IMG/VR virus record: IMGVR_UViG_2529293000_000008 | Origin: a virus | Lineage: Duplodnaviria; Heunggongvirae; Uroviricota; Caudoviricetes | Reading direction: 5' to 3' (one strand) | Length of the DNA stretch: 14,962 nucleotides | Shown: positions 1 through 14,962 of the stretch, one piece after another | Position numbering within the stretch: the first letter of the stretch is position 1 | Layout of the letters: the number at the start of each line of letters is the position of its first letter | The notes under the pieces: generated by a model | Seen by the model: only the letters and a program-made list of their open reading frames with translations | What the model was told of the DNA's origin: nothing | Databases searched by the model: none | Translations under genes and position numbers: made by a program

Positions 1-165
1 ATGGCAAAGCCGATCATCACGCTCAATGGCCTAAAAATCGTCATTATGTTGGGAATGCTGGTCATTATTCTCTGCGGTATCCGTTTTGCCGCCGAGATCA
101 TCGTGCCGTTTATTCTCGCATTATTTATTGCTGTTATATATAACTTATTTCGCATAACACATTGA
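1..165 (+). pseudogene. tqsA: 5' fragment of a host inner-membrane transporter gene (AI-2E/PerM family, TqsA/YdgG-like), truncated and fused to foreign sequence at the island junction
   Basis: ORF starts at nt 1 and encodes [46 protein letters not shown], a hydrophobic transmembrane N-terminus that matches TqsA/YdgG as I recall it (not searched). After about codon 46 it continues as YNLFRITH and stops at 163-165, so only a 54-codon fusion remains. Confidence 0.45.
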
Positions 166-344
166 TTTAATTAAATAATTAACACCGCAAAAAGTGCCAA
201 AAATCGCAAAATGACTACACCAGTGACTACACCGTTCGGTGCACTGTATGAAACAACGTGGAACAAATAGACACAAGAAATATACAGGCGGATCATCTTT
301 CCAGGGGGAAGCACACCAATTCATGAGGGGCGTTAATGTCGATA

Positions 345-863: not shown

Positions 864-1145
864 TTACCGCCGCAACCGCTCCGGCTTCTTCCAGTGGTAC
901 GTTATTTTCTCCTTCTCCCGATACATCTCCACGCGGCGACGGTAGGCCAGCAACTCAAGAACTCTGGTTCGTATGTTGCGCATATCCACGCCATTAAGTT
1001 CTATACCATCACGGCGCATCACCTCAGCAACAACACGCGCATAGTTTTCGGCTGTCACGCTGTCCGGCTGCGTGGCCTGTTCGTCAGCCTGCTGGCTGAT
1101 TCCGGCAACGCGGCGGATTAATCCCGTTATTTCGGCTTCTGTCAT
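864..1145 (-). CDS. Hypothetical protein (93 aa) at the distal end of the packaging operon
   Basis: ATG at 1145 preceded by a GAGG Shine-Dalgarno; begins 14 nt after the TerL stop on the same strand; no recognisable motif. Confidence 0.5.
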   Translation of the reverse strand: MTEAEITGLIRRVAGISQQADEQATQPDSVTAENYARVVAEVMRRDGIELNGVDMRNIRTRVLELLAYRRRVEMYREKEKITYHWKKPERLRR

Positions 1146-1158
1146 GCTGCTGACCTCA

Positions 1159-2820
1159 TTACACCCCGCTAAATTCTTCCAGTTTCTGGCGGTGGCTGTC
1201 GCTTATATCAAAAGCAAAATCCTCATGCTCTGCCTGGAATGTACCAAACGCCATCAGCGCCGCCACGCTCGGGTCTATCTTGTTCGGTGATTTTTTCTTG
1301 TTCGGCTTGATATTGGCGTTCGCGTCACTCTGCATCACGACGTTACTCATCGACCAGGACAACACCGGATCGCCACGATGCACAATCACCCTGCGGTTAA
1401 CAAAAACTTCGAACGATTTCGCCGCCGGACTGAATCTGAGGTAGGTTTGCGGGAACGGCTCCACCTCAAAACCTGCCCCCTGTAATTGCGTTCTGAGATG
1501 CGTGGCGTTCCACGTATCAAAGCCCACCAGCCTGATATTAAATTTCTCCGCGTCCTGCATGATGTCATCTCTGATCCGGTCGTAATCAATGCAGTCGCCA
1601 GGCGTTGTGCGTATCCAGCCTGCTTTAGCCCACTGACGATAGATGGCGCGGTTTTTATTGGCGGGGTTCTGTAGCTGAAATTCCGGCAGATAGTGACGGG
1701 AAACCAGCATAATGGTTTTACCGACCGGAAAGGCATAGCACACGCTGGAAATATCGCTGGTTGATGATAAGTCCAGCCCCGCGTAACACTCCTGGCCGTG
1801 TAAATCTTCCTCCGTGAACGTTCCGGCACACTCAGCCCATGCGCCGTTACCCATCCACGGGGTAGCCCCCTGGCACCAGATATTAAATCGCTTTGTCATC
1901 ATCTCCACCCACTGCGACGGAATACCCCGCGCTTTCTGGATGGTTGAGGCCAGTTTTTCACGATCGACGGAAACATCAATATTAGGGTTCGCCTTTATCC
2001 ACATCGCCGGATCATCAACCTCGTTTTCGTCGTCCAGTTCGTAAATCAGTACAAAAATTGAATCGTTAACCTCTTCGCCGTCCAGGATCTGGCAGCAATA
2101 ATCATAGTGCTGCTTACAGGCTGAAACGACGTTGCTGCCTGATGTGGTAATGGCAAATAACAGCCCTTCGGGACGTGCGCCCATCCCCAGCTCAAGCGCG
2201 GAATAAACGCCGTTATCGGGGTGCAAGTGGTATTCGTCCACGATGGAAAGGCTGGGGTTTGTTCCCTCGATGGTTGCCGCTTTTGCTGCCAGCGGCTTTA
2301 ACAGGCTGTTGCTTTTCGGGTGTATCACCTTATGCGCCTGAATATTCACCCGCCTGCGTAACGGTCGGGATAAAAGGCACATCTGACGCGCATCATCAAA
2401 GACGATCCGCGCCTGGTCACGGCTCACCGCTGCGGTGTAGATATCCTGCTGACCGTTCTCCATAATCAGAAACCAGTTAGCCAGAATCGCGGCGGTCGTG
2501 GATTTCGCATTTTTGCGCGGCACTTCGATAAAGGCGCTCGTGTATTTGCGCCGTCCGGTGGCCTTAACCTTAAAGCCGAGGATGCACGCAAAGGCGAACT
2601 GCTGCCACGGCTCCAGCTCAATGGGTCTGCCACGCATCGGTCCTTTTACGTGCGGGCACACCCTGGAAAAGGCAATAAACCGCTCCACAACCTCACGATC
2701 GAACGTGTAAAGGGGGCTTTTAAGGTCCGAAAAGTACCGTTTAACGGCCTGTTTCAGCCGTTTACAGGCCGGAATTTTGCCCGTTTTTACGTCTTCTGCG
2801 TACTTATTCCAGGCGGTCAA
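1159..2820 (-). CDS. terL: Terminase large subunit (TerL)
   Basis: 553 aa; terminase-type deviant P-loop (PRKNAKST), size and overall pattern typical of TerL; TTG start at 2820 preceded by GAGGA; overlaps the TerS 3' end, consistent with translational coupling. Confidence 0.9.
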   Translation of the reverse strand: MTAWNKYAEDVKTGKIPACKRLKQAVKRYFSDLKSPLYTFDREVVERFIAFSRVCPHVKGPMRGRPIELEPWQQFAFACILGFKVKATGRRKYTSAFIEVPRKNAKSTTAAILANWFLIMENGQQDIYTAAVSRDQARIVFDDARQMCLLSRPLRRRVNIQAHKVIHPKSNSLLKPLAAKAATIEGTNPSLSIVDEYHLHPDNGVYSALELGMGARPEGLLFAITTSGSNVVSACKQHYDYCCQILDGEEVNDSIFVLIYELDDENEVDDPAMWIKANPNIDVSVDREKLASTIQKARGIPSQWVEMMTKRFNIWCQGATPWMGNGAWAECAGTFTEEDLHGQECYAGLDLSSTSDISSVCYAFPVGKTIMLVSRHYLPEFQLQNPANKNRAIYRQWAKAGWIRTTPGDCIDYDRIRDDIMQDAEKFNIRLVGFDTWNATHLRTQLQGAGFEVEPFPQTYLRFSPAAKSFEVFVNRRVIVHRGDPVLSWSMSNVVMQSDANANIKPNKKKSPNKIDPSVAALMAFGTFQAEHEDFAFDISDSHRQKLEEFSGV

Positions 2821-3160
2821 GCTCGTCCTCTTCTTCTGTTTCCGGTGGGTTTTTACGGCGGCTTATCGGGTCAAAACCGAGCAAGGAGGCCATTTTTATC
2901 ATCACCCTTTCAGCGTCTGATTTCGCGCTTAATGCGGGGTTTCTGCTCTCGCCGCCCTGACTGTTAACAATGCTGAACCCGCGCGCCGCAAGGTCTGCGA
3001 CGGCTTTCCGGTAAATGGAGTAGTTGACACAATACAGTTCCAGATTGCTCCAGTCGGCGGGGGTCAGGTCTCCCCGTTCCGCAAGCTGCCGCGATTTTTC
3101 CCGCCACTGCTTCACGGCGATGTCATCCAGGTAGGCGGGGGCTTTCGGTGGTCTTGCCAT
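2804..3160 (-). CDS. terS: Terminase small subunit (P27-family-like TerS)
   Basis: 118 aa, MARPPKAPAYLDD...LELYCVNYSIYRKA pattern typical of P27-family small terminase; ATG at 3160; lies directly upstream of TerL. Confidence 0.8.
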   Translation of the reverse strand: MARPPKAPAYLDDIAVKQWREKSRQLAERGDLTPADWSNLELYCVNYSIYRKAVADLAARGFSIVNSQGGESRNPALSAKSDAERVMIKMASLLGFDPISRRKNPPETEEEDELDRLE

Positions 3161-3282
3161 GCTTATTTTTCGTCAGATTATTTTTCAAAAAATTCCCGTG
3201 CATAAAAATTTGAGGAGGCGTTCGGTGCCCGGCGGGGTCGGGTTTGTCCTGAAAACGCCCCCCACCCCGCCATACAGCCTCA

Positions 3283-3465
3283 TCAGCGATTGCGGAAACA
3301 TTCCATAACCTCGCGGTCACGGTCGGTTAATCGCTTCGCTGTGATGCGTTCTGCGCGTCCTGACGCTTTATCTTTATGCCCTGTTTCCTGTGTCTTCCAT
3401 GCGTCACGCTGCCTTATAAGTCCACGGATAAGGCGGTTTTGTTCCCGCTCATTCATCAGCGTCAT
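3283..3465 (-). CDS. Possible small basic protein (about 60 aa) between HNH and TerS
   Basis: Internal ATG of the 3283..3687 ORF overlapping the HNH stop; Arg/Lys-rich; weak or no Shine-Dalgarno, so the call is tentative. Confidence 0.25.
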   Translation of the reverse strand: MTLMNEREQNRLIRGLIRQRDAWKTQETGHKDKASGRAERITAKRLTDRDREVMECFRNR

Positions 3466-3889
3466 ACATCCAGTTATTGCGGTTAGCGGCCCGTTCTTCA
3501 TCTTCACGAAATCCACCTGCGGCACGCTTGCTTTTTGTTGCCGGATCAAGCCATTTCGTTTTCTGGTTATGACACGCCTGACACAATGGCTGATGGTTCC
3601 ATTCGGGCCAGAAGAGAACATCATCGCCGCCATCGATGGGGATAATGTGATCCACCACCACGGCGGGCGTATATATCCCCTTCTCAAGGCATCGCACGCA
3701 TAACGGGTTTTTACTCAGATACATGGCGCGGTATTTGTCCCACTGTCTGGAGTACCCACGCGCGCGGCGGTGTCCTCGTCTGGCATCCTCTGCACGCCAT
3801 GCCGCCCGCCTGTGCTCCTCACACTTACCGGACTTAACGCGCCTGTTACAGCCTGGTTCTGTACATCGTCTTAATGGTTGCCACGGCAT
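3449..3889 (-). CDS. HNH endonuclease (terminase-associated)
   Basis: 146 aa with Cys-rich N-terminus (CTEPGCNRRVKSGKCEEH) and HNH core (DHIIPIDGG...NHQPLCQACHNQKT); sits immediately upstream of terS as in HK97-type cos packaging modules. Confidence 0.85.
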   Translation of the reverse strand: MPWQPLRRCTEPGCNRRVKSGKCEEHRRAAWRAEDARRGHRRARGYSRQWDKYRAMYLSKNPLCVRCLEKGIYTPAVVVDHIIPIDGGDDVLFWPEWNHQPLCQACHNQKTKWLDPATKSKRAAGGFREDEERAANRNNWMYDADE

Positions 3890-4182
3890 CAGTACACCCC
3901 CACATCACGGTAAGCCGTCCAGAGTGCGCCTATCGTCATGGGTACGCGCGTTTTTGCGTTATCCGCGACAATCTGGCGATTTTCATACAGGTGAGCGATA
4001 AACATCATGCAGCCAATCTTTATGGCTGGCGTGAACTCCAGCCCGTCATCAAAGCGCCTGCCTATGTGTATCTGGCACGCCTCAAGCGATGCGGCAATGT
4101 ATCCGCTGATTAACTGGTCTTCATCGTCGCCATCGATGCGGCAATGGAGTTTCACTTCTTCCAGGGTGATAAGTTCTGTCAT
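3889..4182 (-). CDS. Head-tail connector protein (gp6-like)
   Basis: 97 aa, MTELITLEEVKLHCRIDGDDEDQLISGYIAAS pattern typical of gp6-like connectors; ATG at 4182; its stop overlaps the HNH start by one base. Confidence 0.8.
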   Translation of the reverse strand: MTELITLEEVKLHCRIDGDDEDQLISGYIAASLEACQIHIGRRFDDGLEFTPAIKIGCMMFIAHLYENRQIVADNAKTRVPMTIGALWTAYRDVGVY

Positions 4183-4517
4183 TTTTCCGCGCCCTCACGA
4201 CAAAGAATTTCAAGGCGTGTCCTGGCGGCATCTGGCAGCGGTTGCCCGATGATATTCAGTACACGCCCCGCCAGCGGCCCCGTATTGACCTTTATCCGAC
4301 TGGTGGCGTTGATGTCCTTCCGGTAGCGTATCCATATCCTTACAGTTCCAGTCGCCAGCTCTGCACCTGATGAAATGGCCTCCTTGCTGCTGATCATGTT
4401 CACGCTTGCCCAGAGTGTGTGACCGTCCACCCACGTTTCGAGTATTTCGCCCGTCATGGCTCTGGTCTGTTTCAGGGTCTGAATCGTTACCCTGTCACGC
4501 AGTCGCCCTATGTTCAT
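4179..4517 (-). CDS. Head closure / head-tail joining protein (gp7- or SPP1 gp16-like)
   Basis: Start chosen at internal ATG 4517 (MNIGRLRDRVTIQ...) with a GGGAGA Shine-Dalgarno, overlapping the portal stop; IRYR and C-terminal pattern typical of head-closure proteins. Confidence 0.75.
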   Translation of the reverse strand: MNIGRLRDRVTIQTLKQTRAMTGEILETWVDGHTLWASVNMISSKEAISSGAELATGTVRIWIRYRKDINATSRIKVNTGPLAGRVLNIIGQPLPDAARTRLEILCREGAEK

Positions 4518-5725
4518 TCCGGTTTTTCTCCCTCGCTGATTTTTACTTCCTGTTTCCATGCCTGGCTGAACTCATCACCACCATCACGCGGTGACAGTCC
4601 TTCACGTTCGCGGGCTTCGTTCGGACACATAACGCCGGATTTGATGCCGCGCTCATAGGTGGCAAAGCGTTCGCCAGGTGTGGCCCGTAACAGGTCCGCG
4701 CTGTCAAACTCCACCTGATACCGGATACCAGGTACAGGCGAGGCCACCAGCAGGGCGTTTTTTATCTGCTGCTCAAAGTTCGCCAGCCACGGGCGCATCG
4801 TCATGGTGAGAAATGCGCGGCTTGCCTCGCTGAAATTGCTGTAGGTGCTGTTGCTGTATTCCTGCAAAAAAATCGGCGAGACGTTGAACATTCTGGCGAT
4901 GTCTTCAATGGTGAAGCGACGGGAGGCCAGCCATTCAGCATCCTGATTACTCATGCCCAGCTGCTGATAGCTCATACCCCCTTCAAGGATGGGCGTTTTT
5001 CCGGCGTTTCTGGCCCCTTTGTAGCGTTCCAGTGCGGCTAATGCCTGTTTGCCCTTCACGCCGTCCAGCCATTCGCCTGACGTGATAACCCCTGCCGCCA
5101 TCATGCCATCACGCATCACGCTCGCGCCGTGGCGTTGTTGGGCCAGCCCAAGCCCCAGCGATTCGCGGCAGATGGTTACAGGTGAGCGCCCCATAAAACC
5201 GTCATCCGTGGAGTAACGAAGGTGGAGAACCTCCCACGGTAAATAGTTGCGGGTGTTTCCGGTGTAGGCGTCAGTGATGCAGTAGCGCCAGTTATGCTCA
5301 CCTGTCTGCTCAACGTTCACCGACTGCGGCGGGTAAGGATGCAAAGCGACTGGAAAACCATCACGCCCCCACTGAATCACCGCATAAGCATTACCGTTTA
5401 ACAGGCAGTGGCGGATCATCATTCGCTTAAACTGGTAGGGGGTTTGCCATGCGTTCGGGCGCTCGTTGAGGATGTGATCGACCGGATGAGAATCAAGCCA
5501 CTCTCGGGCCTCCTTCCCCTTCTCATTGCGTACCAGGTACAGGTAACACGGCATGGTAGCCACCGCCTCAGAGATGACCGTGACGGCGTTCATGACGGCG
5601 GGCAGTGATTCCGCTGTCCCCGATGATACGTACTCACCCGCCCCCGTGTTCGATGTGCCAGCCAGCGCCATAAACTCATCAAGCGTCATGCTGCGCTGCT
5701 CTTTTTTTCTTCTGAAAGGCCACAT
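4514..5725 (-). CDS. Portal protein (HK97 family)
   Basis: 403 aa with the LLNGNAYA motif and overall HK97-family portal pattern; ATG at 5725. Confidence 0.9.
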   Translation of the reverse strand: MWPFRRKKEQRSMTLDEFMALAGTSNTGAGEYVSSGTAESLPAVMNAVTVISEAVATMPCYLYLVRNEKGKEAREWLDSHPVDHILNERPNAWQTPYQFKRMMIRHCLLNGNAYAVIQWGRDGFPVALHPYPPQSVNVEQTGEHNWRYCITDAYTGNTRNYLPWEVLHLRYSTDDGFMGRSPVTICRESLGLGLAQQRHGASVMRDGMMAAGVITSGEWLDGVKGKQALAALERYKGARNAGKTPILEGGMSYQQLGMSNQDAEWLASRRFTIEDIARMFNVSPIFLQEYSNSTYSNFSEASRAFLTMTMRPWLANFEQQIKNALLVASPVPGIRYQVEFDSADLLRATPGERFATYERGIKSGVMCPNEAREREGLSPRDGGDEFSQAWKQEVKISEGEKPE

Positions 5726-5726
5726 A

Positions 5727-6299
5727 TCACACCCCCGCTAAATCCGCCCACCAGCGGCGATTATCCGCACGCGGCATTTTTTCGGGGTGCTGCTCGTACA
5801 GGGAGCGGCGGGCCAGCTCCACGCCGGAATCAGGGTAAGCCGGTACGGATGTAACGGTAATTTCGTATAGTTCCGCCACCAGCACGGTGCGCACGCATGG
5901 ATCTGTTGTGGTATCCCATACATCCTTACGGGAACGAAAGCCAAAGCTCATGCCGGATATATCACCTCGTTTAACCAGTTCGATAACGTCGCGCCCTGTA
6001 CTGGTATCCGGTGGGGTCAGTTCAAAGCGTAACCCTGTTTCGTCCTCTTCCAGTTTCAGCGTGCCGGAACGGGTGCGCCCCAGTAACATGCTGTGGTCAT
6101 GCTCATACAGGCCGCGAACGTCATTACCCGCCGCAAGCCACTCAGTAAACGCCCCCCGCTGGAATTTTTCGTAAAACTCCCCCCATAGCAGTTCTGAAAG
6201 CTTATCCCAGCGAACAACGTAGCCCGTCAGCGTACCGGCTCCGCTGGTAGTGATTTCCGATGACCGGATTTCCATACTCTTCATAATTTTTTCACCCAT
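5727..6299 (-). CDS. Prohead maturation protease (HK97 family)
   Basis: 190 aa with G-x-L-x-GY, HDHS..LGR and GMSFGF motifs typical of HK97 prohead proteases; the true start may be the internal ATG at 6284. Confidence 0.9.
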   Translation of the reverse strand: MGEKIMKSMEIRSSEITTSGAGTLTGYVVRWDKLSELLWGEFYEKFQRGAFTEWLAAGNDVRGLYEHDHSMLLGRTRSGTLKLEEDETGLRFELTPPDTSTGRDVIELVKRGDISGMSFGFRSRKDVWDTTTDPCVRTVLVAELYEITVTSVPAYPDSGVELARRSLYEQHPEKMPRADNRRWWADLAGV

Positions 6300-6308
6300 A
6301 AAACACTA

Positions 6309-6328
6309 AAGGGGCTTTTAAGCCCCTT
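6309..6328 (-). terminator. Stable hairpin between the capsid and protease genes (possible attenuator)
   Basis: aaggggcttttaagcccctt forms an 8 bp GC-rich stem with a 4 nt loop; on the minus-strand RNA it is followed by UAGUGUUUU just before the protease start. Confidence 0.4.
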
Positions 6329-6338
6329 CTGTATGCTG

Positions 6339-7496
6339 TTAATCGTCGTCCTGTGGCAGTTCCAGAATCTTGATCGCGTTCGAATCCACCACGCCACCGC
6401 CTAAATATTTCTGCGTGAAAATTTTGATGAAGCCCGGCTCTGTGAGGTTGTCCGGTCTGGTGCGAACACCTGTTTCGTGATCAACAATGTAGTAACCGCG
6501 TTTGAAGTCACCCAGGGCAATAACGTTATCAGGCATAAACTCCAGATATTCGACCGGAAGGCCCAGCAACGTATCAGGATCACCCGCCTGTAAACGGTCG
6601 CGCCAGATGTAATCACCGTTCGCGTTCTTCACCTTCTGAAGTTTTGCCGCCGTCGTGGAGTTAACCACCCAGACCGCGTTTTTGCGGTATTTTTTACGTA
6701 ATGCAAATTTCAGGTCGATCAGCGGGTCCGCAGATGTCCACGCCAGAGATTCGGAAGGTTTAATTACCTGCAACGTACCAAAATCACGCTCTTTGTCGTT
6801 CTTCTCTGCACGGGGTACGGATAAAAAACCTTTTGCTTTTTTGTCACCGTCGCCCACAACCAGATCGCTTTCTTCGGTTTCCGTGAAGGTGTCGCCAATC
6901 TCACCCGTCAGCCATGAAAGGATGTCCACATCGGAAAAATCCACGATTTCCTGTGTGGTGCGCGGGTACGCATAGACCGGATACAGCTTAATGCTCACCT
7001 CGTTAATCTGCGGGGTGCTGGTCTGTTCGCGTGTCTTACCCTCTTCACCGTGGTTAACGGTCGCACCGCCAGCGGAAACAAGCTGCTTAAACTCGTTGCT
7101 GCTGATTTTCTTCACGGTACAGATGCGGCGCATGGTGGATTCATCCGTCAGCATTCGCATGATTTCGGTGTTCAGTTCGGGGATAACGGTATAACCACCA
7201 TCAGCGGGAACGCCTGTACTTAATGCGCGGGTTTCACCTGTCAGAATGTAGTTGCGTAGTTCTGCGGGGTCAGTGGTCTGGCTGCTTTTACCTGGCTTGC
7301 TGCGCTCTTCGTCTGCAATGGCTTCAAGGCGGGAAATGTCTTTATCGAGGGATTCAGCTTTAGCGCGTAATTCGTCAAATTTTGCGCCCTCAGCATCGTT
7401 AAGACTGCGGTTTTCTTTTTCCGCGTTCTCCAGCATGTCGCGCATCTGATTTTTAATGGCGGTTTTCTGCTGGCGTAATTCGATTATTCTCGGCAT
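6339..7496 (-). CDS. Major capsid protein (HK97 fold) with N-terminal coiled-coil delta/scaffold domain
   Basis: Start taken at ATG 7496 (MPRIIELRQQ...); the track ORF extends to a GTG at 7544; N-terminal charged coiled-coil region followed by capsid-like body. Confidence 0.9.
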   Translation of the reverse strand: MPRIIELRQQKTAIKNQMRDMLENAEKENRSLNDAEGAKFDELRAKAESLDKDISRLEAIADEERSKPGKSSQTTDPAELRNYILTGETRALSTGVPADGGYTVIPELNTEIMRMLTDESTMRRICTVKKISSNEFKQLVSAGGATVNHGEEGKTREQTSTPQINEVSIKLYPVYAYPRTTQEIVDFSDVDILSWLTGEIGDTFTETEESDLVVGDGDKKAKGFLSVPRAEKNDKERDFGTLQVIKPSESLAWTSADPLIDLKFALRKKYRKNAVWVVNSTTAAKLQKVKNANGDYIWRDRLQAGDPDTLLGLPVEYLEFMPDNVIALGDFKRGYYIVDHETGVRTRPDNLTEPGFIKIFTQKYLGGGVVDSNAIKILELPQDDD

Positions 7497-7783: not shown

Positions 7784-8059
7784 TTATCTGTCCTGGTAAT
7801 TTCGCCATATTTCATCGCTTACACCATCTATACCCATTTCAGCATAAGTGCGATCTACTGCCTTTCTCAGGTCTCCGAAGTTATCCGGCGGCTCCGGTGG
7901 CTTCTGTGCCTTCCTGGAACATTCCAGCCGTCGCATCGTAACCTGATGCCGTTCCTTGTCTGTCTCCACCAGCAGCATGACTTCACCCCATCGCGCCGAC
8001 GCCCTCCGGTAAAAGCCTTTCGCCTCGAGTTCTTCCGCTATGCGGTCATGTACCATCGC
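7784..8059 (-). CDS. PerC-family-like small transcriptional regulator
   Basis: Start chosen at internal ATG 8059 with strong GAGGGGG Shine-Dalgarno right after the SSB stop; MVHDRIAEELEAKGFYRRASARWGEV resembles the PerC/Pch signature as I recall it (not searched). Confidence 0.5.
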   Translation of the reverse strand, partial: AMVHDRIAEELEAKGFYRRASARWGEVMLLVETDKERHQVTMRRLECSRKAQKPPEPPDNFGDLRKAVDRTYAEMGIDGVSDEIWRNYQDR

Positions 8060-8066
8060 CACCCCC

Positions 8067-8477
8067 TCAGAACGGAATACCGTCACCGTAAGGGTCATCG
8101 CCTCCCGCTGGTGGCTGATTACCCTGTGTGCCTGTGGTTTTGCGTCTGTTCCCGCCAGGACGTGCCGCACGGGCACTGATTACGCTGTCTGCAATAACCT
8201 GATAACCCTGCCGCGTTTCCCCGTTCTGTCCCGTCCACTGGCTGACCTGCATCGTGCCGGATACGCTGGCAACGTCGCCTTTTTGATGTTTAGCCAGGAA
8301 GTCGGCCTGCTTACCAAATGCGATGACCGATAGCCATAACGTCGCCTGCCCATCCTGCGCCTGACTACATGGCAACGATACCGCCATACGCGCCAGCGTC
8401 ATCGGTGTGCCCTTACTGGTCTGTTTTACCTGCGGGTCGTCCACCAGCCGCCCGTAAGCCGCTATCTGTGCTGTCAT
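8067..8477 (-). CDS. ssb: Single-stranded DNA-binding protein (SSB-like)
   Basis: 136 aa; OB-fold-like core, Gly/Pro/Gln-rich linker and C-terminal acidic tip DDPYGDGIPF resembling the SSB DDDIPF tail; ATGA overlap with the upstream gene; GGAGAGG Shine-Dalgarno. Confidence 0.7.
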   Translation of the reverse strand: MTAQIAAYGRLVDDPQVKQTSKGTPMTLARMAVSLPCSQAQDGQATLWLSVIAFGKQADFLAKHQKGDVASVSGTMQVSQWTGQNGETRQGYQVIADSVISARAARPGGNRRKTTGTQGNQPPAGGDDPYGDGIPF

Positions 8478-8731
8478 GATTCCACCTCTCCGGTTTTAAC
8501 GTTGATGGTTGTTACCTGTTCCGCTTCGGCAATCTCCCGTTCTGTCAGCGTGGCAAAGTTTGCCGCCGCCGTGGTCATGAATGCGCTTATCAGGTCGGGA
8601 TGTGCTTTCGCGTATCCTTCCCCCGTGTTGCGGTCGATGATTTTTATCGCCACTCTCAGCCAGTGCTCTGTAAGGTCAATGGCGCGGTTATGCTGCTTCT
8701 TCTGATTATTAAGTTTTCCTGATGTGCGCAT
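8474..8731 (-). CDS. Hypothetical protein (85 aa)
   Basis: ATG at 8731, translationally coupled to ssb; no recognisable motif. Confidence 0.5.
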   Translation of the reverse strand: MRTSGKLNNQKKQHNRAIDLTEHWLRVAIKIIDRNTGEGYAKAHPDLISAFMTTAAANFATLTEREIAEAEQVTTINVKTGEVES

Positions 8732-8780
8732 TTTTATTTTTACCCCCTCGTTTAAAAAGTTTTGAGTTGTGCCTCCCCTT

Positions 8781-9006
8781 GTCTACCTTATCTACCTTAC
8801 TGGCTCTCATGCCAGTAATGGCGCGGCTTTCAGCGGGGTAGAGTGCTTTTATCCACTATCTACCCCGTATCTACCTCCCTGTCTGATTCAGGTAAAATCA
8901 GGTAGAGAGGGTAGATAGTAGGTAGACAGTGAAAAAAGGCTGTCTACCTAAGTTAATATACTGAATTAAATGTATTTTTCTTTACTCAGGTAGACAGGGT
9001 AGACAG
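8781..9006. repeat. Iteron array and AT-rich tract; putative origin of replication
   Basis: At least 11 copies of the heptamer GGTAGA(C/T/G) or its complement in both orientations: 8781-8787, 8790-8796, 8837-8843, 8858-8864, 8869-8875, 8901-8907, 8910-8916, 8921-8927, 8942-8948, and tandem GGTAGACAG at 8989-8997 and 8998-9006; AT-rich stretch 8950-8985; immediately 3' of the primase-helicase gene. Confidence 0.65.
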
Positions 9007-9019
9007 CCATTGCAAAAAA

Positions 9020-10774
9020 TTATAAAAACGCGTCGCAATCGTCTGTTGTTATTGCGTTAGTCTGCGTTACTCCCTTAACTTTCCGCGTAATATATTCATG
9101 TCCGTAAACTTTCGCGGCTGGCTTCATAGCCTTGCCAAAGTCATTTACGTTTAGCGGTTTGCTCCTGCCTGCGTACGCCATAAACGCCAGATAGACGCGG
9201 TAAAGGCTGTTTCTGGTCGTGTACTTCACTGAATCGCCACCGCCGCCCATCATCAGGCCGCGTGCTTCCTCCAGAAAATTCAGGAACTGGCAAAACTCAA
9301 TAACCGGATCCGTCTGTTGCTTTATTGCCAGTGCTTCATCACCGTCACGCTGTTCAATGAGTAAAGCCCGTGCCTTTTCAGGGTCGGCAAAGTTCGCCAG
9401 CAAGCGGCGGATAATCACAGGGATTTCAGCCGCGATCTTTTCCGGTAGCTCCCTGTCTTTTTCTGCCTCGCTTACGATGTTATCGAACCGGAATATCACC
9501 CGACGACGTGCCACACCTCCGGCCCGTTCGGTGAATATCATCGGATTGTTATTGGTTGCCAGCACCACCGCCCTGATTACCGCCGTAAAACGCTTTTCAT
9601 ATTTCGGGTTAATTTCCACGGGGTCGCCGCCCGTGATTTTCTTGATGCCCGTTCCTTCGCCTGTATATTTCGGCTGGTCTGCCAGGACGATAAGACGACT
9701 CCCGACAACCTGCGCACGCCCACCAGCATCATCAAGCGATGTCATTTCAGCGCTTACCGTGTTCTGTTTCCCTGCCAGAAGGCTGGCTATGTGTGTGAAT
9801 GTACTTTTACCGCTCCCGCCGTCTCCGGTGGCCTCAATAAACATCTGCCAGTCGTACCGGTTCGCCATAATCATGTACAGCGCGGCACATATACGCATCA
9901 TCTTGCGCGGGTCTTTTCCGGCTGCGTGCTCAAGCCATTTATGAAAGTTTGGCGCGTTATCGCGGATGTTCTCCCCTGGTGCTGGTGGCGTGTACTCAAT
10001 GCCGTTGTGCGTGGTGATCCAGTTCTCCGGCGTGTGCGGGGAAAATTCCCCCGTTTTCAGGTCAAGCGCACCATTGGCGAACGGCAGCAAATCGCCGGAC
10101 GGCTCGCCCATTGGTTCGGCAATAACTTTTAACGCTTCCACGGCGTTATTGATTACGCGCTTGCTGAAAGTGGCCCTGTGCTCTGAATAGATCGCCACCA
10201 TTTCGCGGCTAAGTTCCATTGTGCTGACCGGACACCATACCCCGCCGCGCCATACGTGAACGATTTCACTTTCAGGATGTACGCAAACGCCATCAAAGCG
10301 ATCGGCAAGCAGCTGCGCGCGCTCACTGTCCGCCATCTGCGAAAGTTGCGCCTTTTGCTTTACCGGAAGCTCAATGACCAGACCATCAGAAAGATTCTGG
10401 CGCTCACGGGCCAGATATTCGCGCCAGTTCTCCACCTTCTGACCGTGCATACCCTCAGGATAAAAATTTGCATCCTGTACGCCTGCCGCCGCCAGCTTCT
10501 GGCCAATCGCCTTTATCATTACTGGCGCAAGATATCCGGCCCTGAATATGCGCACGGATTTTCTGCCTTCCGGCACAATTTGCAGCTTATCCAGTTCTGA
10601 TAACTGCTGCTCCCCAAGCCACACAGGAGGCTCATTATCTCCGGCCATACGCGCATCATGTTCCTGCCATTGTTTCGCGTGTGCCCAGGCATCACTACCC
10701 GCAAAAATAATGACTTCTGTTCCTTTGTGTTTTATGCCGCGTGACTGCTGTTTTACGTTCGGTGCCAGTTTCAT
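9020..10774 (-). CDS. Replication initiator: P4/D5-type primase-helicase (Pri-Rep)
   Basis: 584 aa with Walker A GDGGSGKST and a Walker B-like RLIVLADQP segment in the C-terminal half, as in P4-alpha/D5-like helicases; ATGA coupling with the upstream ORF; AGGGGT Shine-Dalgarno. Confidence 0.85.
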   Translation of the reverse strand: MKLAPNVKQQSRGIKHKGTEVIIFAGSDAWAHAKQWQEHDARMAGDNEPPVWLGEQQLSELDKLQIVPEGRKSVRIFRAGYLAPVMIKAIGQKLAAAGVQDANFYPEGMHGQKVENWREYLARERQNLSDGLVIELPVKQKAQLSQMADSERAQLLADRFDGVCVHPESEIVHVWRGGVWCPVSTMELSREMVAIYSEHRATFSKRVINNAVEALKVIAEPMGEPSGDLLPFANGALDLKTGEFSPHTPENWITTHNGIEYTPPAPGENIRDNAPNFHKWLEHAAGKDPRKMMRICAALYMIMANRYDWQMFIEATGDGGSGKSTFTHIASLLAGKQNTVSAEMTSLDDAGGRAQVVGSRLIVLADQPKYTGEGTGIKKITGGDPVEINPKYEKRFTAVIRAVVLATNNNPMIFTERAGGVARRRVIFRFDNIVSEAEKDRELPEKIAAEIPVIIRRLLANFADPEKARALLIEQRDGDEALAIKQQTDPVIEFCQFLNFLEEARGLMMGGGGDSVKYTTRNSLYRVYLAFMAYAGRSKPLNVNDFGKAMKPAAKVYGHEYITRKVKGVTQTNAITTDDCDAFL

Positions 10775-11070
10775 TTTTTACCCCTGAATCCTTTAATCAT
10801 GGTTTTCATCTTCTGAATATTGGCGCGTGCTTTCTCCCTGCTGGTGGGCACGTTACGCGGTACGGCCTGCACAAGAGAAAAATCACGGTCGAACTGATAA
10901 ACAGGCATCACGCAATCATATTCGTAGCCTTCACGACGGTAGGTTACGCGCCGTTCCTCCACGCCCTTAATCATTACCGTGCCGCCGTACTTATCGCGGT
11001 AAATATCACCGCGCATGAATTTAGTGCGAGTTTTGCCACTGGCAGTTAAGCCAGAATATTTAAGTTTCAT
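10771..11070 (-). CDS. Hypothetical protein (99 aa), translationally coupled to the primase gene
   Basis: ATG at 11070 with GGAG Shine-Dalgarno; its stop overlaps the primase ATG; no recognisable motif. Confidence 0.5.
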   Translation of the reverse strand: MKLKYSGLTASGKTRTKFMRGDIYRDKYGGTVMIKGVEERRVTYRREGYEYDCVMPVYQFDRDFSLVQAVPRNVPTSREKARANIQKMKTMIKGFRGKK

Positions 11071-11309: not shown

Positions 11310-11378
11310 ATTAATCCCCGTCCGTCGTTTTTCTTAAAATAACCTCTGTCACGAAATCAGCATAATCGGCGGCGATAT

Positions 11379-11531
11379 TCAGTACATCAAGCCCCGTTGA
11401 TTTATATTCTCTCGTGGAAAGTAAGAAAAAGCCGCTCTAATAAGCTCTGGCATTGACGAAAGCGCATCAGCCGCATCATCAGGAACGCCGGAAAATTCCT
11501 GTTTCAGGGAATTAAAACGATCATCACGCAT
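11379..11531 (-). CDS. Hypothetical small protein (50 aa), not in the supplied ORF track
   Basis: Hand-translated from the minus strand: ATG at 11531 preceded by AGGGGGG, overlapping the upstream stop by 8 nt; MRDDRFNSLKQEFSGVPDDAADALSSMPELIRAAFSYFPRENINQRGLMY then TGA. Confidence 0.35.
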   Translation of the reverse strand: MRDDRFNSLKQEFSGVPDDAADALSSMPELIRAAFSYFPRENINQRGLMY

Positions 11532-11889: not shown

Positions 11890-12106
11890 GGTGCACCTCC
11901 TGCACATCAGCCATGATAATTTTTCCGGCCTTATCCAGTGCCTGATCGGCTTTTAGCTGCACAAATGCTAAATAATGGAAGATGCATTCTGATTCTCTGG
12001 CTGCGTGTTTATGCGCCCTGTCAGCAATAACAGAAATATCAATAAGCGCGTGCATCAGCGTAGTGAGCGCGGCGGCTGCTGCGTCCGGTGTGGTTTTATT
12101 GCACAT
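11882..12106 (-). CDS. Hypothetical protein (74 aa)
   Basis: ATG at 12106 with AGGGGG Shine-Dalgarno; overlaps the upstream ORF stop. Confidence 0.5.
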   Translation of the reverse strand: MCNKTTPDAAAAALTTLMHALIDISVIADRAHKHAARESECIFHYLAFVQLKADQALDKAGKIIMADVQEVHHA

Positions 12107-12302
12107 GGCCTACCCCCTGGCGAATACGGGCAGCGAATACCATCACGCAGCCATCAGGAGATTGCTGACGCGCTTCCTGTTCGCTGGTGGCCTCGATGGT
12201 AATCACGCGCGGTTGTGCCGTGCTCAGGGCGATAAAACGCCAGATGTATTTATTCAGGTCGTGCGAATCCCGCCCTTGCGGGTGTGTGGTATGATTTCTC
12301 AT
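12096..12302 (-). CDS. Hypothetical protein (68 aa), first gene of the small-ORF operon
   Basis: 3' portion of the long 12096..13124 track ORF; internal ATG at 12302 with GAGG Shine-Dalgarno; the upstream part of the track ORF crosses the promoter/operator region and is judged spurious. Confidence 0.45.
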   Translation of the reverse strand: MRNHTTHPQGRDSHDLNKYIWRFIALSTAQPRVITIEATSEQEARQQSPDGCVMVFAARIRQGVGHVQ

Positions 12303-12399
12303 AGCTACCTCGATACTTTCGCTATCGTTGGTGGTTAGAAGCCCCGTTACTGCTCCTACAGTGCGGGGTTTCGTCGTTTCTGTGCCTTTCATCAACAAG

Positions 12400-12480
12400 G
12401 TGTAAGACACAATGTAAAACAATGGTGTCTTACACGTCAACCCTTCAAAATATTTTTTTTTCGTGTATATTGTCTTACAC
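12400..12480. promoter_or_regulatory. Divergent promoter region with three operator-like GTGT-N3-ACAC sites
   Basis: GTGTAAGACAC at 12400-12410, its reverse complement GTGTCTTACAC at 12425-12435, and tTGTCTTACAC at 12470-12480; a T-run and TATATT lie between sites 2 and 3; sits between minus-strand and plus-strand operons. Confidence 0.55.
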
Positions 12481-12501
12481 CAAAAACATGAGGGGTTAAA
12501 C

Positions 12502-12681
12502 ATGGCAACGGGTCCAAAGAATGCAAAATCACAATCTGTAACTGCACGTATTGCCCATGAAATTATTGAAGGCATGGAGAACGTGAAAGAAGAAGGCGAA
12601 AGCACGGGACAGTTTATAAACGCAGCCATGCGCGGCGAAATCAAACGCCGCCAGCGCCGCAAGGCCAAAGAACCAGAGTAA
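12502..12681 (+). CDS. Small DNA-binding protein, likely ribbon-helix-helix (CopG/Arc/MetJ-like) regulator
   Basis: 59 aa; ATG at 12502 with GAGGGG Shine-Dalgarno 6 nt upstream; SVTARIAHEIIEGMENVKEEGESTGQFINAAMRGEI fits a beta-strand, helix, G-x-S/T turn, helix RHH layout; basic C-terminal tail; opposite strand to the rest of the island. Confidence 0.5.
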   Translation: MATGPKNAKSQSVTARIAHEIIEGMENVKEEGESTGQFINAAMRGEIKRRQRRKAKEPE

Positions 12682-12738
12682 TCACCATCAGCGCCGTGGT
12701 GTAAGGTATTACGGCGCATTGCTATGCAGGACAACACA

Positions 12739-12912
12739 ATGACCGATAAAGAATTGACCAAAACATTATCACCGGCACGGAAAAGACGGCGCAGAAAGAT
12801 AGAACATGAATCAGAAAGATTCGCGCCATGTGCTTTTGCCCTTGAGCAATTCCTTAAAGAGTACAGGGAAAAGCGCTCATTGCAGGTATGGCAACGAACT
12901 GAACCAGACTGA
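12739..12912 (+). CDS. Hypothetical small basic protein (57 aa), second gene of the plus-strand operon
   Basis: ATG at 12739 with weak AGGA Shine-Dalgarno; contains a KRRRRK stretch; followed by an intrinsic terminator. Confidence 0.35.
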   Translation: MTDKELTKTLSPARKRRRRKIEHESERFAPCAFALEQFLKEYREKRSLQVWQRTEPD

Positions 12913-13009
12913 TTGCATTGCCCACCAGCCTGATAGCGGCTATCATCCCCGTGCTTATGTTTGGGATCACACACACAAACGGCGCAGCGGGTTATCTGTT
13001 CAGAAAGGC

Positions 13010-13037
13010 GGCTCCATTTCGGGGCCGCTTTTTTTAT
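13010..13037 (+). terminator. Rho-independent terminator of the plus-strand regulatory operon
   Basis: gcggctcc-atttc-ggggccgc hairpin (8 bp stem with one G-U pair) followed by TTTTTTT. Confidence 0.6.
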
Positions 13038-13181
13038 GCCTGAAAAACCCCAATTTTGTGGTTTTCCAGTCTCACCAGGGCGAACGAATCCCCGCCCACG
13101 TTCTGGCGTATATTCAATCTTCATGGTTATAGCTCTGTGTTCAGATGATTGATGTGTGGCGGCTGTGTGCCGCCAGCGTGA

Positions 13182-13370
13182 TTAATGAACTGCCTTGCAG
13201 CTATCCTTCCAGGCCAGAACCTCGGATAAAGACCAGCCAACGGAACGACCGCCAAGTTTACGACGTGATGGGAATTGTCCGGCCTTTTCCAGGCGGTAGC
13301 GGCATGAGCGGCTAAGGCCTGTTAGCTTTTCGCATTCTTTTTCACGTATAAACCGATCAGTGCTTAACAC
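13182..13370 (-). CDS. alpA: AlpA-family transcriptional regulator / excisionase-like protein
   Basis: 62 aa; LTGLSRSCRYRLEKAGQFPSRRKLGGRSVGWSLSEVLAW matches the AlpA-family HTH pattern; GTG start at 13370 with AAGGGGG Shine-Dalgarno. Confidence 0.85.
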   Translation of the reverse strand: MLSTDRFIREKECEKLTGLSRSCRYRLEKAGQFPSRRKLGGRSVGWSLSEVLAWKDSCKAVH

Positions 13371-13744: not shown

Positions 13745-14962
13745 TTATTTTCTTCTGGCTACTGGTAGCGTGGTTACGTTTTCATGTGTTCCCGCCAGTA
13801 TCCCTAACCGCTCCGTCCACATATCCAGCGCATTGCGTTTAGCATCCAGATAACGGGAATGATTATAAACTCGCTGCATTCCTGGCATCTGATGACCTGT
13901 AAGCTGCTCCACGACATGCGGATCAACGCCTAAATCGTTCAGCATGGTTGTAAAGGTGCGCCGGATGTCATGCAGTGACCAGTGAGGATGATTAAGCCTC
14001 CTGTGCGCTAATCTTCCATACTGCGATACGCTGGCCTCCTGTTTCGCTTCCCCCAGCAATAAGCCCGTGTGCCTGTTCTGCTCCACCAGCTGCGTGACGA
14101 ACGGCAGGATCGCTTCCGGTATGGGCCGGAATATTGCGACCTTCGTTTTGCTGTGCTCCTTCGGAACGGTCCATAGCATTTCCGTAAAATCCCACTCCCC
14201 GATCTCCGATAGCCTCAGTTCTACCGTCCTGGCTCCGAAGACAATCAGGAGGCGGATTAACGCGACGTAGTAAGGGGAAAATATTTTTTTGTCCAGTGCC
14301 TGCAATAATTCGCCAAGTTCTTTGTTACTTAAGACACGTTCGCTTATATCCGGTTTTTTCCCAACGTCCGCCACGTTCAGATCGTCCAGAACGTTGCTGA
14401 TTGCATAGCGCCGCCTACGGCAGAACTTAAGCGCCTGTTTGCACGCCTGTAGCACGAATCCGGCAGTAACAGGCGTTCGCTTTGCCACCTGGTCAAAACA
14501 GGCCAGCCAGTGCCGTAGCTCGCATTTATCCAGCGGCATAGCACCAATCTGCTGTATTACGTGATTATTAAGTCGCCTTTTCAGGGCGATATAATCCACG
14601 CGGTTTTCCTTTACGTAATACTCAAGCCAGTAGGTGAGCGCATCGCCAACCGTTACGGGCTTTAACGCTTCCTGTACGGTGTAATTCATCTCATGACGTG
14701 GATTTTTCCCCTCAGCCAGCCATGTGCGACACTGTGCGGCTTTTTCCCTGGCTGCTTTCAGGCTCAGATCAGGATAACTTCCCAGCTTAATGCGTTCGGG
14801 TCGTGTCTCCCTTCCCGTTCCGGCCCTGTATGTGAAATACCAGGTCAATTTCCCTGATGTTAAATATTTCACGCTCAGGTTTCCGCCATCACTATAAAAC
14901 GTGTTTTTCTCCGCTGGCTTACCATGAAGTTTCCTTAGCAAGGTATCGCTCAGTTTGTTCAT
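13745..14962 (-). CDS. int: Tyrosine recombinase / integrase (P4-like)
   Basis: 405 aa; N-terminal arm-binding-like region (LTSGKLTWYFTYRAG...LGSYPDLSLKAAREKA) and C-terminal catalytic region with HDIRRT and RVYNHSRY (His/Arg/Tyr signature); start codon lies at the window edge. Confidence 0.92.
   Translation of the reverse strand: MNKLSDTLLRKLHGKPAEKNTFYSDGGNLSVKYLTSGKLTWYFTYRAGTGRETRPERIKLGSYPDLSLKAAREKAAQCRTWLAEGKNPRHEMNYTVQEALKPVTVGDALTYWLEYYVKENRVDYIALKRRLNNHVIQQIGAMPLDKCELRHWLACFDQVAKRTPVTAGFVLQACKQALKFCRRRRYAISNVLDDLNVADVGKKPDISERVLSNKELGELLQALDKKIFSPYYVALIRLLIVFGARTVELRLSEIGEWDFTEMLWTVPKEHSKTKVAIFRPIPEAILPFVTQLVEQNRHTGLLLGEAKQEASVSQYGRLAHRRLNHPHWSLHDIRRTFTTMLNDLGVDPHVVEQLTGHQMPGMQRVYNHSRYLDAKRNALDMWTERLGILAGTHENVTTLPVARRK

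Follow-up and report, generated by a model that had tools for sequence, protein, structure and literature searches.

Background and locus

The prototype capsid-forming PICI (cf-PICI) of Escherichia coli, EcCIEDL933, measures ~15 kb and carries int, alpA, and rep followed by head and packaging genes, with no tail genes; this architecture was shown experimentally to be that of a functional satellite (bioRxiv 10.1101/2022.09.08.507074). In the same paper, Alqurainy et al. report that cf-PICIs use six E. coli attB sites, four of which are common to classical PICIs, and eight PICI attachment sites in E. coli were given by Fillol-Salom et al. (PMC6092414). SatelliteFinder defines a cf-PICI by 11 components and forbids tails and holins (PMC10085698). 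Flockhart et al. placed an ED1a relative of OI-51 "between ydgD and ydgG" (PMC3378721), and the EcCIED1a-type classical PICI accordingly occupies the same chromosomal locus as the island described here, ydgG being tqsA. In the parts of the surveys that are accessible, tqsA is named by Bobay et al. (2013) among the conserved E. coli genes disrupted by prophage integration without restoration (PMC3603311) and by Mageeney et al. (2020) among the conserved genes disrupted by integrated elements, again without restoration (PMC7192596); the same parts give no core sequence, arm repeats, satellite type, or occupancy figures. Since both the disruption of tqsA and a PICI at this locus have been published, the event is of a known kind at a known site, and what is added here is the base-level position of the junction, the motifs of core and arms, figures for occupancy, and a secondary nonsense mutation.

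We analyzed a stretch of 14,962 nucleotides (nt), referred to as the window, which matches E. coli AST216 (NZ_AP043625.1, positions 1771321 to 1786282) over its whole length with one mismatch. Our main reading, to which we assign a probability of roughly 0.85, is that a 15,021-bp cf-PICI integrated in tqsA via its own integrase at a dedicated attB, so that the gene is split and its loss is tolerated. The island resembles EcCIEDL933 in size, gene order, and lack of tail genes but differs from it in attachment site and integrase.

The window starts with a truncated tqsA

The following features define the left junction (coordinates, strand where applicable, and description).

1 to 137, plus strand: tqsA 5' fragment, identical to tqsA nt 1 to 137 in island-free genomes
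129 to 137: core, or stretch of crossover identity, TGCTGTTAT, tqsA-5' copy; the sole stretch common to both junctions and attB
138 to 165, plus strand: island-derived tail of the chimeric open reading frame (ORF) (YNLFRITH, residues 47 to 54), with no counterpart in uninterrupted tqsA

The ATG-initiated ORF at positions 1 to 165 has 54 codons and stops at 163 to 165. The sequence-only reading had taken it for a TqsA/YdgG-like transporter N terminus that gives way to unrelated residues after about codon 46, and both parts of this description are borne out. A megablast search with nt 1 to 400 matched 5,423 of 5,426 complete E. coli genomes; in ~5,400 of the 5,426, the identity over nt 1 to 137 was 99 to 100%, under a gene annotated "tqsA: AI-2 transporter TqsA." In island-free genomes the match stops exactly at nt 137, which is how the proposed alignment of the window start with the uninterrupted locus places the junction. 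Compared base by base with the uninterrupted reference tqsA of strain 5A (L002), the last common base is the second base of codon 46, the fragment comprising codons 1 to 45 plus two bases of codon 46. Because ATT becomes ATA, I46 is retained by chance.

The full tqsA product is assigned to PF01594 (AI-2E_transport; residues 14 to 328, E = 8.6e-80) and matches the TqsA of PDB entry 7nb6 over its whole length, the two being of the same length. The tqsA identity of the window start is not down to chance. Two findings that had been named as possible counterevidence, an intact small gene at nt 1 to 165 in island-free genomes and an absence of homology to TqsA/YdgG, did not materialize: nt 1 to 137 run on into the 344-amino-acid (aa) tqsA in these genomes, and the full gene is homologous as just described. 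In the cryo-electron microscopy structure of TqsA, helix H1 (Thr7 to Phe29) makes the contacts that hold the pentamer together and H2 extends from Ala31 to Trp57 (PMC9475539). Since these limits bracket residue 46, the gene is cut in the middle of H2; the 5' fragment encodes H1 and the first half of H2, and the 3' fragment is without H1.

The second junction and the fate of the gene

The remainder of the gene had been predicted to lie past the integrase end, where a direct repeat was to be sought; both were found there. In AST216 (locus L003; window positions equal L003 positions minus 3000), the window end is followed by the integrase start, a tqsA pseudogene "missing N-terminus," and pntB. 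The tqsA 3' fragment starts at L003 18150, 188 nt past the right window edge, and the integrase end of the island carries tqsA nt 129 to 1035. The second copy of TGCTGTTAT, which corresponds to tqsA nt 129 to 137 and is identical in seven carriers, lies at L003 18150 to 18158 (window equivalent, 15150 to 15158), outside the window. The sequence of attB is TTATT-TGCTGTTAT-TCTTAACCC, that of the tqsA-5' junction is TTATT-TGCTGTTAT-ATATAACTT, and that of the integrase-side junction is TAAAA-TGCTGTTAT-TCTTAACCC. As both junctions share the 9-bp direct repeat TGCTGTTAT with attB, the island that it brackets measures 15,021 bp. Joining the flanks (attL and attR giving the empty site) reproduces tqsA exactly in register in the seven carriers.

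Whether the island restores an intact copy of its target had been left open by the sequence-only reading; it does not. Read in frame with tqsA, the junction on the integrase side gives ...K N T K TGA TAA N A V I L N P..., with the in-frame TGA TAA two codons ahead of the junction, and therefore no island peptide can fuse to the tqsA 3' fragment. The first in-frame starts within this fragment are the GTG at codon 50 and the ATG at codon 53, whose products would be without H1 and half of H2. An ATG made at the integrase-side junction (AAAATGCTG) was considered as a restart of tqsA and rejected, being out of frame and running into a stop. PGAP annotates tqsA pseudogenes in all seven carriers inspected, with both fragments in five and only the 3' fragment in two short loci. 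Between the integrase start codon and the junction (L003 17962 to 18144; window equivalent, 14962 to 15144), RefSeq lists WP_001332680.1, a hypothetical protein of 60 aa; it shares its frame with the tqsA 3' fragment, from which TGA TAA separates it, and is probably spurious.

The island had been proposed to lie in a 5' coding region and not in a tRNA gene, and this holds: ARAGORN detected no tRNA or tmRNA in the window, so that a tRNA-type target is excluded. No further host gene is interrupted, since tqsA is flanked by the divergent ydgV/mdtJI on one side and the convergent pntB on the other.

Occupancy of the site in complete genomes

A 161-nt probe centered on the junction was uninterrupted in 5,174 of the 5,426 complete E. 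coli genomes. The tqsA-5' junction, defined as a single match covering at least 80% of nt 1 to 400, was present in 230 genomes and the integrase-side junction in 247. From these figures, the site is occupied in about 4.5% of complete genomes, and almost all interruptions at this position are of this type. At least 80% of the whole window was found in 157 genomes, at 96 to 100% identity. Identical junction sequences are present in seven carriers, which come from different sources and represent two island types; this is a dedicated attachment site and no accident. There were several independent integrations at this one position, where a cf-PICI and a classical PICI are inserted at the same base, with 230 to 247 carriers.

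Excision in silico produced an open 344-codon tqsA, with zero to two amino acid changes, in six of the seven carriers, which agrees either with a recent insertion or with restorability being maintained. In KKo003, the tqsA 3' fragment has the nonsense mutation S298* (codon 298; L096 17455 to 17457, outside the window). The exact 61-nt S298* allele occurs in 57 complete genomes, which overlap with a group of near-clonal carriers at 96.6% identity; this clone consists mostly of human clinical isolates and has kept the island, and its split tqsA is in decay. In FORC_069, ~10 kb from tqsA (L001 7940 to 9695), a Rac-like prophage carrying intD lies directly against a ynfG pseudogene without its N terminus, a second gene-splitting integration in the same neighborhood.

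Gene content identifies a cf-PICI

The genes of the island were assigned as follows.

864 to 7496, minus strand: head/packaging module (Pfam, PHROGs, and RefSeq annotation of the same DNA), with genes for a phrog_1561 protein, TerL, TerS, a small ORF, HNH, head-tail connector, head completion protein, portal, prohead protease, and major capsid protein
7784 to 11070, minus strand: PerC-family regulator, SSB, a small ORF, primase-replicase (D5_N/DUF5906), and DUF4222 protein (Pfam)
13182 to 13370, minus strand: AlpA-family regulator (PF05930, E = 5e-18)
13745 to 14962, minus strand: tyrosine integrase, 409 aa (Pfam Arm-DNA-bind_3 and Phage_integrase), whose annotated start is 12 nt outside the window edge

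Every large island ORF could be placed by Pfam, and all are on the minus strand. The order from the tqsA-5' end is TerL, TerS, HNH, connector, completion, portal, protease, capsid, PerC, SSB, primase, DUF4222, AlpA, and integrase. TerL has ATPase and nuclease domains, TerS is of the Terminase_4 type, the connector is gp6-like, the protease belongs to S78, and the capsid protein is HK97-type. The five PICI-like core components are present, namely, integrase (PF00589/PF13356), AlpA (PF05930), primase (PF08706/PF19263), capsid (PF05065), and TerS (PF05119). The cf-PICI-specific portal (PF04860), connector (PF05135), adaptor/completion protein (PF05521), TerL (PF03354 and PF20441), HNH (PF01844), and prohead protease (PF04586) all score above the curated Pfam cutoffs. 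No tail, holin, or lysis family was found among 20 proteins compared with Pfam and 10 compared with PHROGs, a set in which ORFs of <60 aa are not exhaustively covered, and the RefSeq annotation of the island DNA lists no tail or lysis gene. With all 11 core components, the island matches the published definition and is a cf-PICI. In the AST216 copy, PGAP reports one frameshifted small ORF and one truncated ORF, and the 11 core genes are unaffected.

The other small ORFs belong to PHROG families of unknown function or are transcriptional regulators. One of them (11329 to 11531) is a frameshifted and truncated pseudogene in AST216 and is intact in the related FORC_069 island. At 12096 to 13124 on the minus strand there is a continuous 342-codon ORF, annotated by RefSeq in two parts, a 68-aa Icd-like protein and a truncated pseudogene; matches of the ORF to phage repressor families (phrog_6196) are confined to its last ~90 residues, and positions 12400 to 12800 have a strongly positive AT skew. 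Because related islands differ here by ~700 bp, we regard this as a variable accessory region. The PerC-family activator is encoded at 7784 to 8056 and the DUF4222 protein (99 aa) at 10771 to 11070, both on the minus strand, and the O157 island at phoQ/roxA has a gene syntenic with the DUF4222 gene. OI-51 carries the PerC-like activator PchE, and RgdR of that island family activates LEE type III secretion; the reported length of RgdR is likewise 99 aa (PMC3378721).

The head/packaging module recurs in 410 genomes, at several attachment sites and with different int and rep modules. It is 96% identical in the O157:H7 cf-PICI next to thiM, which differs from the window island in its integrase and in having a DUF927 replication protein instead of D5_N/DUF5906. 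The island is modular, its int-att module also serving the classical PICI of O18:H1 described below. Between terS and the small ORF after HNH there is a 120-nt gap (3161 to 3282), the location at which the cos site lies in cos phages of the HK97 type. A search for lambda-type cosN returned only matches at chance level.

Integrase and attachment site architecture

At and beyond the left junction, the following elements were delimited.

133 to 144: perfect 12-bp palindrome GTTATATATAAC across the junction (read from the sequence)
138 to 159: core-proximal segment specific to tqsA-targeting islands (alignment A1 and junction sequences)
160 to 440: conserved attP arm distal to int (alignment A1)
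212 to 233, plus strand: two tandem TGACTACACC copies with a 12-nt period, candidate arm-type integrase sites

Judging from its R...H-x-x-R...Y residues and its N-terminal arm-binding domain, the integrase is a P4-type tyrosine recombinase. The catalytic residues, as read from the sequence, are R249 (in GARTVE), H335-D-I-R338, and Y370/Y375, and Arm-DNA-bind_3 covers residues 8 to 95 (Pfam). Where attB has GTTA-N4-TAAC, the window junction has the palindrome GTTATATATAAC: 3' of the core, attP and attB differ at three positions and then agree once more in TAAC, which creates GTTATATATAAC in attP and in the junction. The GTTA/TAAC inverted repeats are a candidate pair of core-type integrase sites, and the predicted junction of the attP circle contains ...GATAAAATGCTGTTATATATAACTT....

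The tandem pair at 212 to 233 reads TGACTACACCAGTGACTACACC, and a matching pair is located on the other arm, at L003 18002 to 18021, outside the window. There are four occurrences of ACTACACC in the 21-kb locus, all within these two arm pairs, and each pair sits in an imperfect direct repeat of ~85 bp. The ACTACACC pairs are natural candidates for the arm-type sites of the integrase N-terminal domain. We infer from these motifs the protein-DNA contacts and the cleavage positions within the 9-bp core.

The arm at 160 to 440 is mostly invariant (~90% or more alike) in cf-PICIs and classical PICIs with this integrase family. One such classical PICI, in O18:H1 (L005), has the same core and its junction at the same tqsA base as the cf-PICI. 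Its integrase, WP_000085276.1, is the same as that of the cf-PICI of FORC_069 (L001), the AST216 allele being WP_000085275.1; unlike the window island, this classical PICI measures 11.4 kb and has no portal, TerL, HNH, or connectors.

The segment at 138 to 159, in contrast, is swapped for unrelated sequence in islands with a 91%-identical integrase at phoQ/roxA. These PICIs of the OI-51/CP-933C type (O157:H7 and Shigella flexneri) lie between phoQ and roxA (ycfD), have near-identical arms including the paired ACTACACC, and share the alpA/ssb/perC/DUF4222 backbone with the window island. Their core, AAATATGTCC, is intergenic, so that no gene is split. The arms are alike up to ...GATAAAAT and again from CATTGATTTAATTAAA, and the ~30 bp between them are unrelated. 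Of the 36 amino acid differences between the two integrases, 22 fall within the first 100 residues, that is, in the arm-binding domain. Within a single int-att family, specificity for tqsA and for phoQ/roxA has been swapped naturally. The phoQ/roxA loci compared are at L004 17470 to 17500 and 28660 to 28690 and in L011. A search of genome contigs with the integrase returned a single locus, from Shigella flexneri and of the phoQ/roxA type.

Proposed mechanism and alternative explanations

According to our main reading, the island's P4-type tyrosine integrase would act on attB in tqsA codons 43 to 46, with TGCTGTTAT as the core, and would bind the GTTA/TAAC inverted repeats at the core and, on the arms, the ACTACACC repeats. 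The crossover leaves tqsA nt 1 to 137 fused to eight island codons and a stop, and nt 129 to 1035 at the integrase end behind in-frame stops, with the AI-2 exporter gene split in the middle of H2. Upon helper-phage induction, acting via AlpA, the island would excise, replicate with its own primase, package itself in its own HK97-type capsids, and borrow the tails of the helper. On this reading, the copy in the window and in AST216 would be mobile, a point against being the frameshifted ORF and the truncated ORF that it carries outside its core genes. The loss of TqsA would be tolerated as a side effect and would not be the reason for the insertion.

As a rule, PICIs excise upon lytic induction of a helper phage, in a cell that is about to lyse. 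Such timing, if it applies to the window island, speaks against regulated gene integrity, an explanation that we consider improbable and according to which integration turns tqsA, and hence AI-2 export, off, precise excision turns it on, and the switching is selected. One survey lists tqsA as a candidate target of this kind, with domain disruption without restoration and tight integrase clades (PMC7192596), and in the locus studied here PF01594 (residues 14 to 328) is indeed cut at residue 46, with no restoration and with stops before the 3' fragment. A switch would also agree with the use of the exact same site by two island types, with the uninterrupted 344-codon ORF that excision in silico rebuilds in six of seven carriers, and with the phenotype of a tqsA deletion, which alters intracellular AI-2, motility, and biofilm (Herzberg 2006, as cited in PMC9475539) and in K-12 increases all three. 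Two observations oppose it. The 57-genome clone with S298* persists although excision cannot restore tqsA function, which is why tolerated loss is favored over a selected switch. Furthermore, the 91%-identical integrase targets an intergenic site, where no gene is disrupted, and gene control is therefore not a property of the integrase family. The side effect is favored and not proven, because a restorable tqsA in six of seven carriers is also predicted by a switch. Where the 3' fragment is intact, as in the lineage of the window, it is conceivable, though doubtful, that switching couples AI-2 release, biofilm, and motility to helper-phage activity.

Much less credible is an immobile prophage remnant, no satellite, whose tail and lysis genes were lost by decay in place. 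The absence of tail and lysis genes and the two internal pseudogenes called by PGAP would fit such a remnant, and related elements were once called "highly degraded" cryptic prophages (PMC3378721). Decay in place is, however, difficult to reconcile with a compact 15-kb architecture that recurs at 96 to 100% identity in 157 genomes (whole window), with a head module found in 410, and that occurs at several attachment sites with different int and rep modules; moreover, all 11 cf-PICI core genes are intact and the architecture is that of EcCIEDL933, the satellite of proven function. We give practically no credence to the possibility that nt 1 to 165 are a genuine small gene, or that the junction arose by misassembly or by a single illegitimate insertion. 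The ORF does run from an ATG to a stop, but its first 137 nt belong to full-length tqsA in island-free genomes, no Pfam family was found for the 54-aa chimeric product, and the identical junction is present in 230 to 247 independent complete assemblies.

Consequences for tqsA studies and annotation

TqsA is, to our knowledge, the only characterized AI-2 exporter, and roughly one complete E. coli genome in 22 harbors a satellite that knocks out its gene. The status of tqsA should thus be borne in mind when quorum sensing or biofilm is compared between strains, and carriers offer a clean natural tqsA-null background. For annotation, the insertion accounts for the orphan 54-codon ORF and for both tqsA "pseudogenes," and the att core and arm repeats let such islands be delimited to the base. 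The current understanding of PICIs and of integrase targeting is unchanged.

Noncoding left end of the island

Five consecutive hairpins, together very stable, occupy noncoding DNA at approximately positions 450 to 650, with RNAfold z-scores of -9.5 (plus strand) and -9.65 (minus strand). No Rfam family matched at the gathering thresholds over the whole window or at E <= 1 over positions 100 to 900, and the left-end noncoding region, including the hairpin cluster, had no match in the phage collection. A 123-nt core (492 to 614) recurs at 92 to 95% identity in several hundred further E. coli genomes. At the loci inspected, it is located downstream of a phrog_1561-type last gene, in PICIs and cf-PICIs integrated elsewhere (at clpS, thiM, or a tRNA-Ile gene or inside prophages); the O157 and O18 PICIs have the flanking arm in common with the window island but lack the cluster. 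Since the copies, from 80 IMG/VR loci and from E. coli, are mostly 97 to 100% alike or partial, they are too alike to give a covariation result, and in the single 75% copy (L008) the stems are neither clearly kept nor clearly broken. The cluster may represent a structured element, RNA or DNA, as yet undescribed in E. coli PICIs. Farther inward, an 18-nt motif (AATATCAGCGGGTTAGCG-like) is present in three copies, at 708 to 725, 756 to 773, and 852 to 869, spaced by 48 and 96 nt. The copy at 852 to 869 overlaps the stop codon of the final island gene, and the copies resemble 3' gene ends left behind when islands recombined, though they could also be binding sites.
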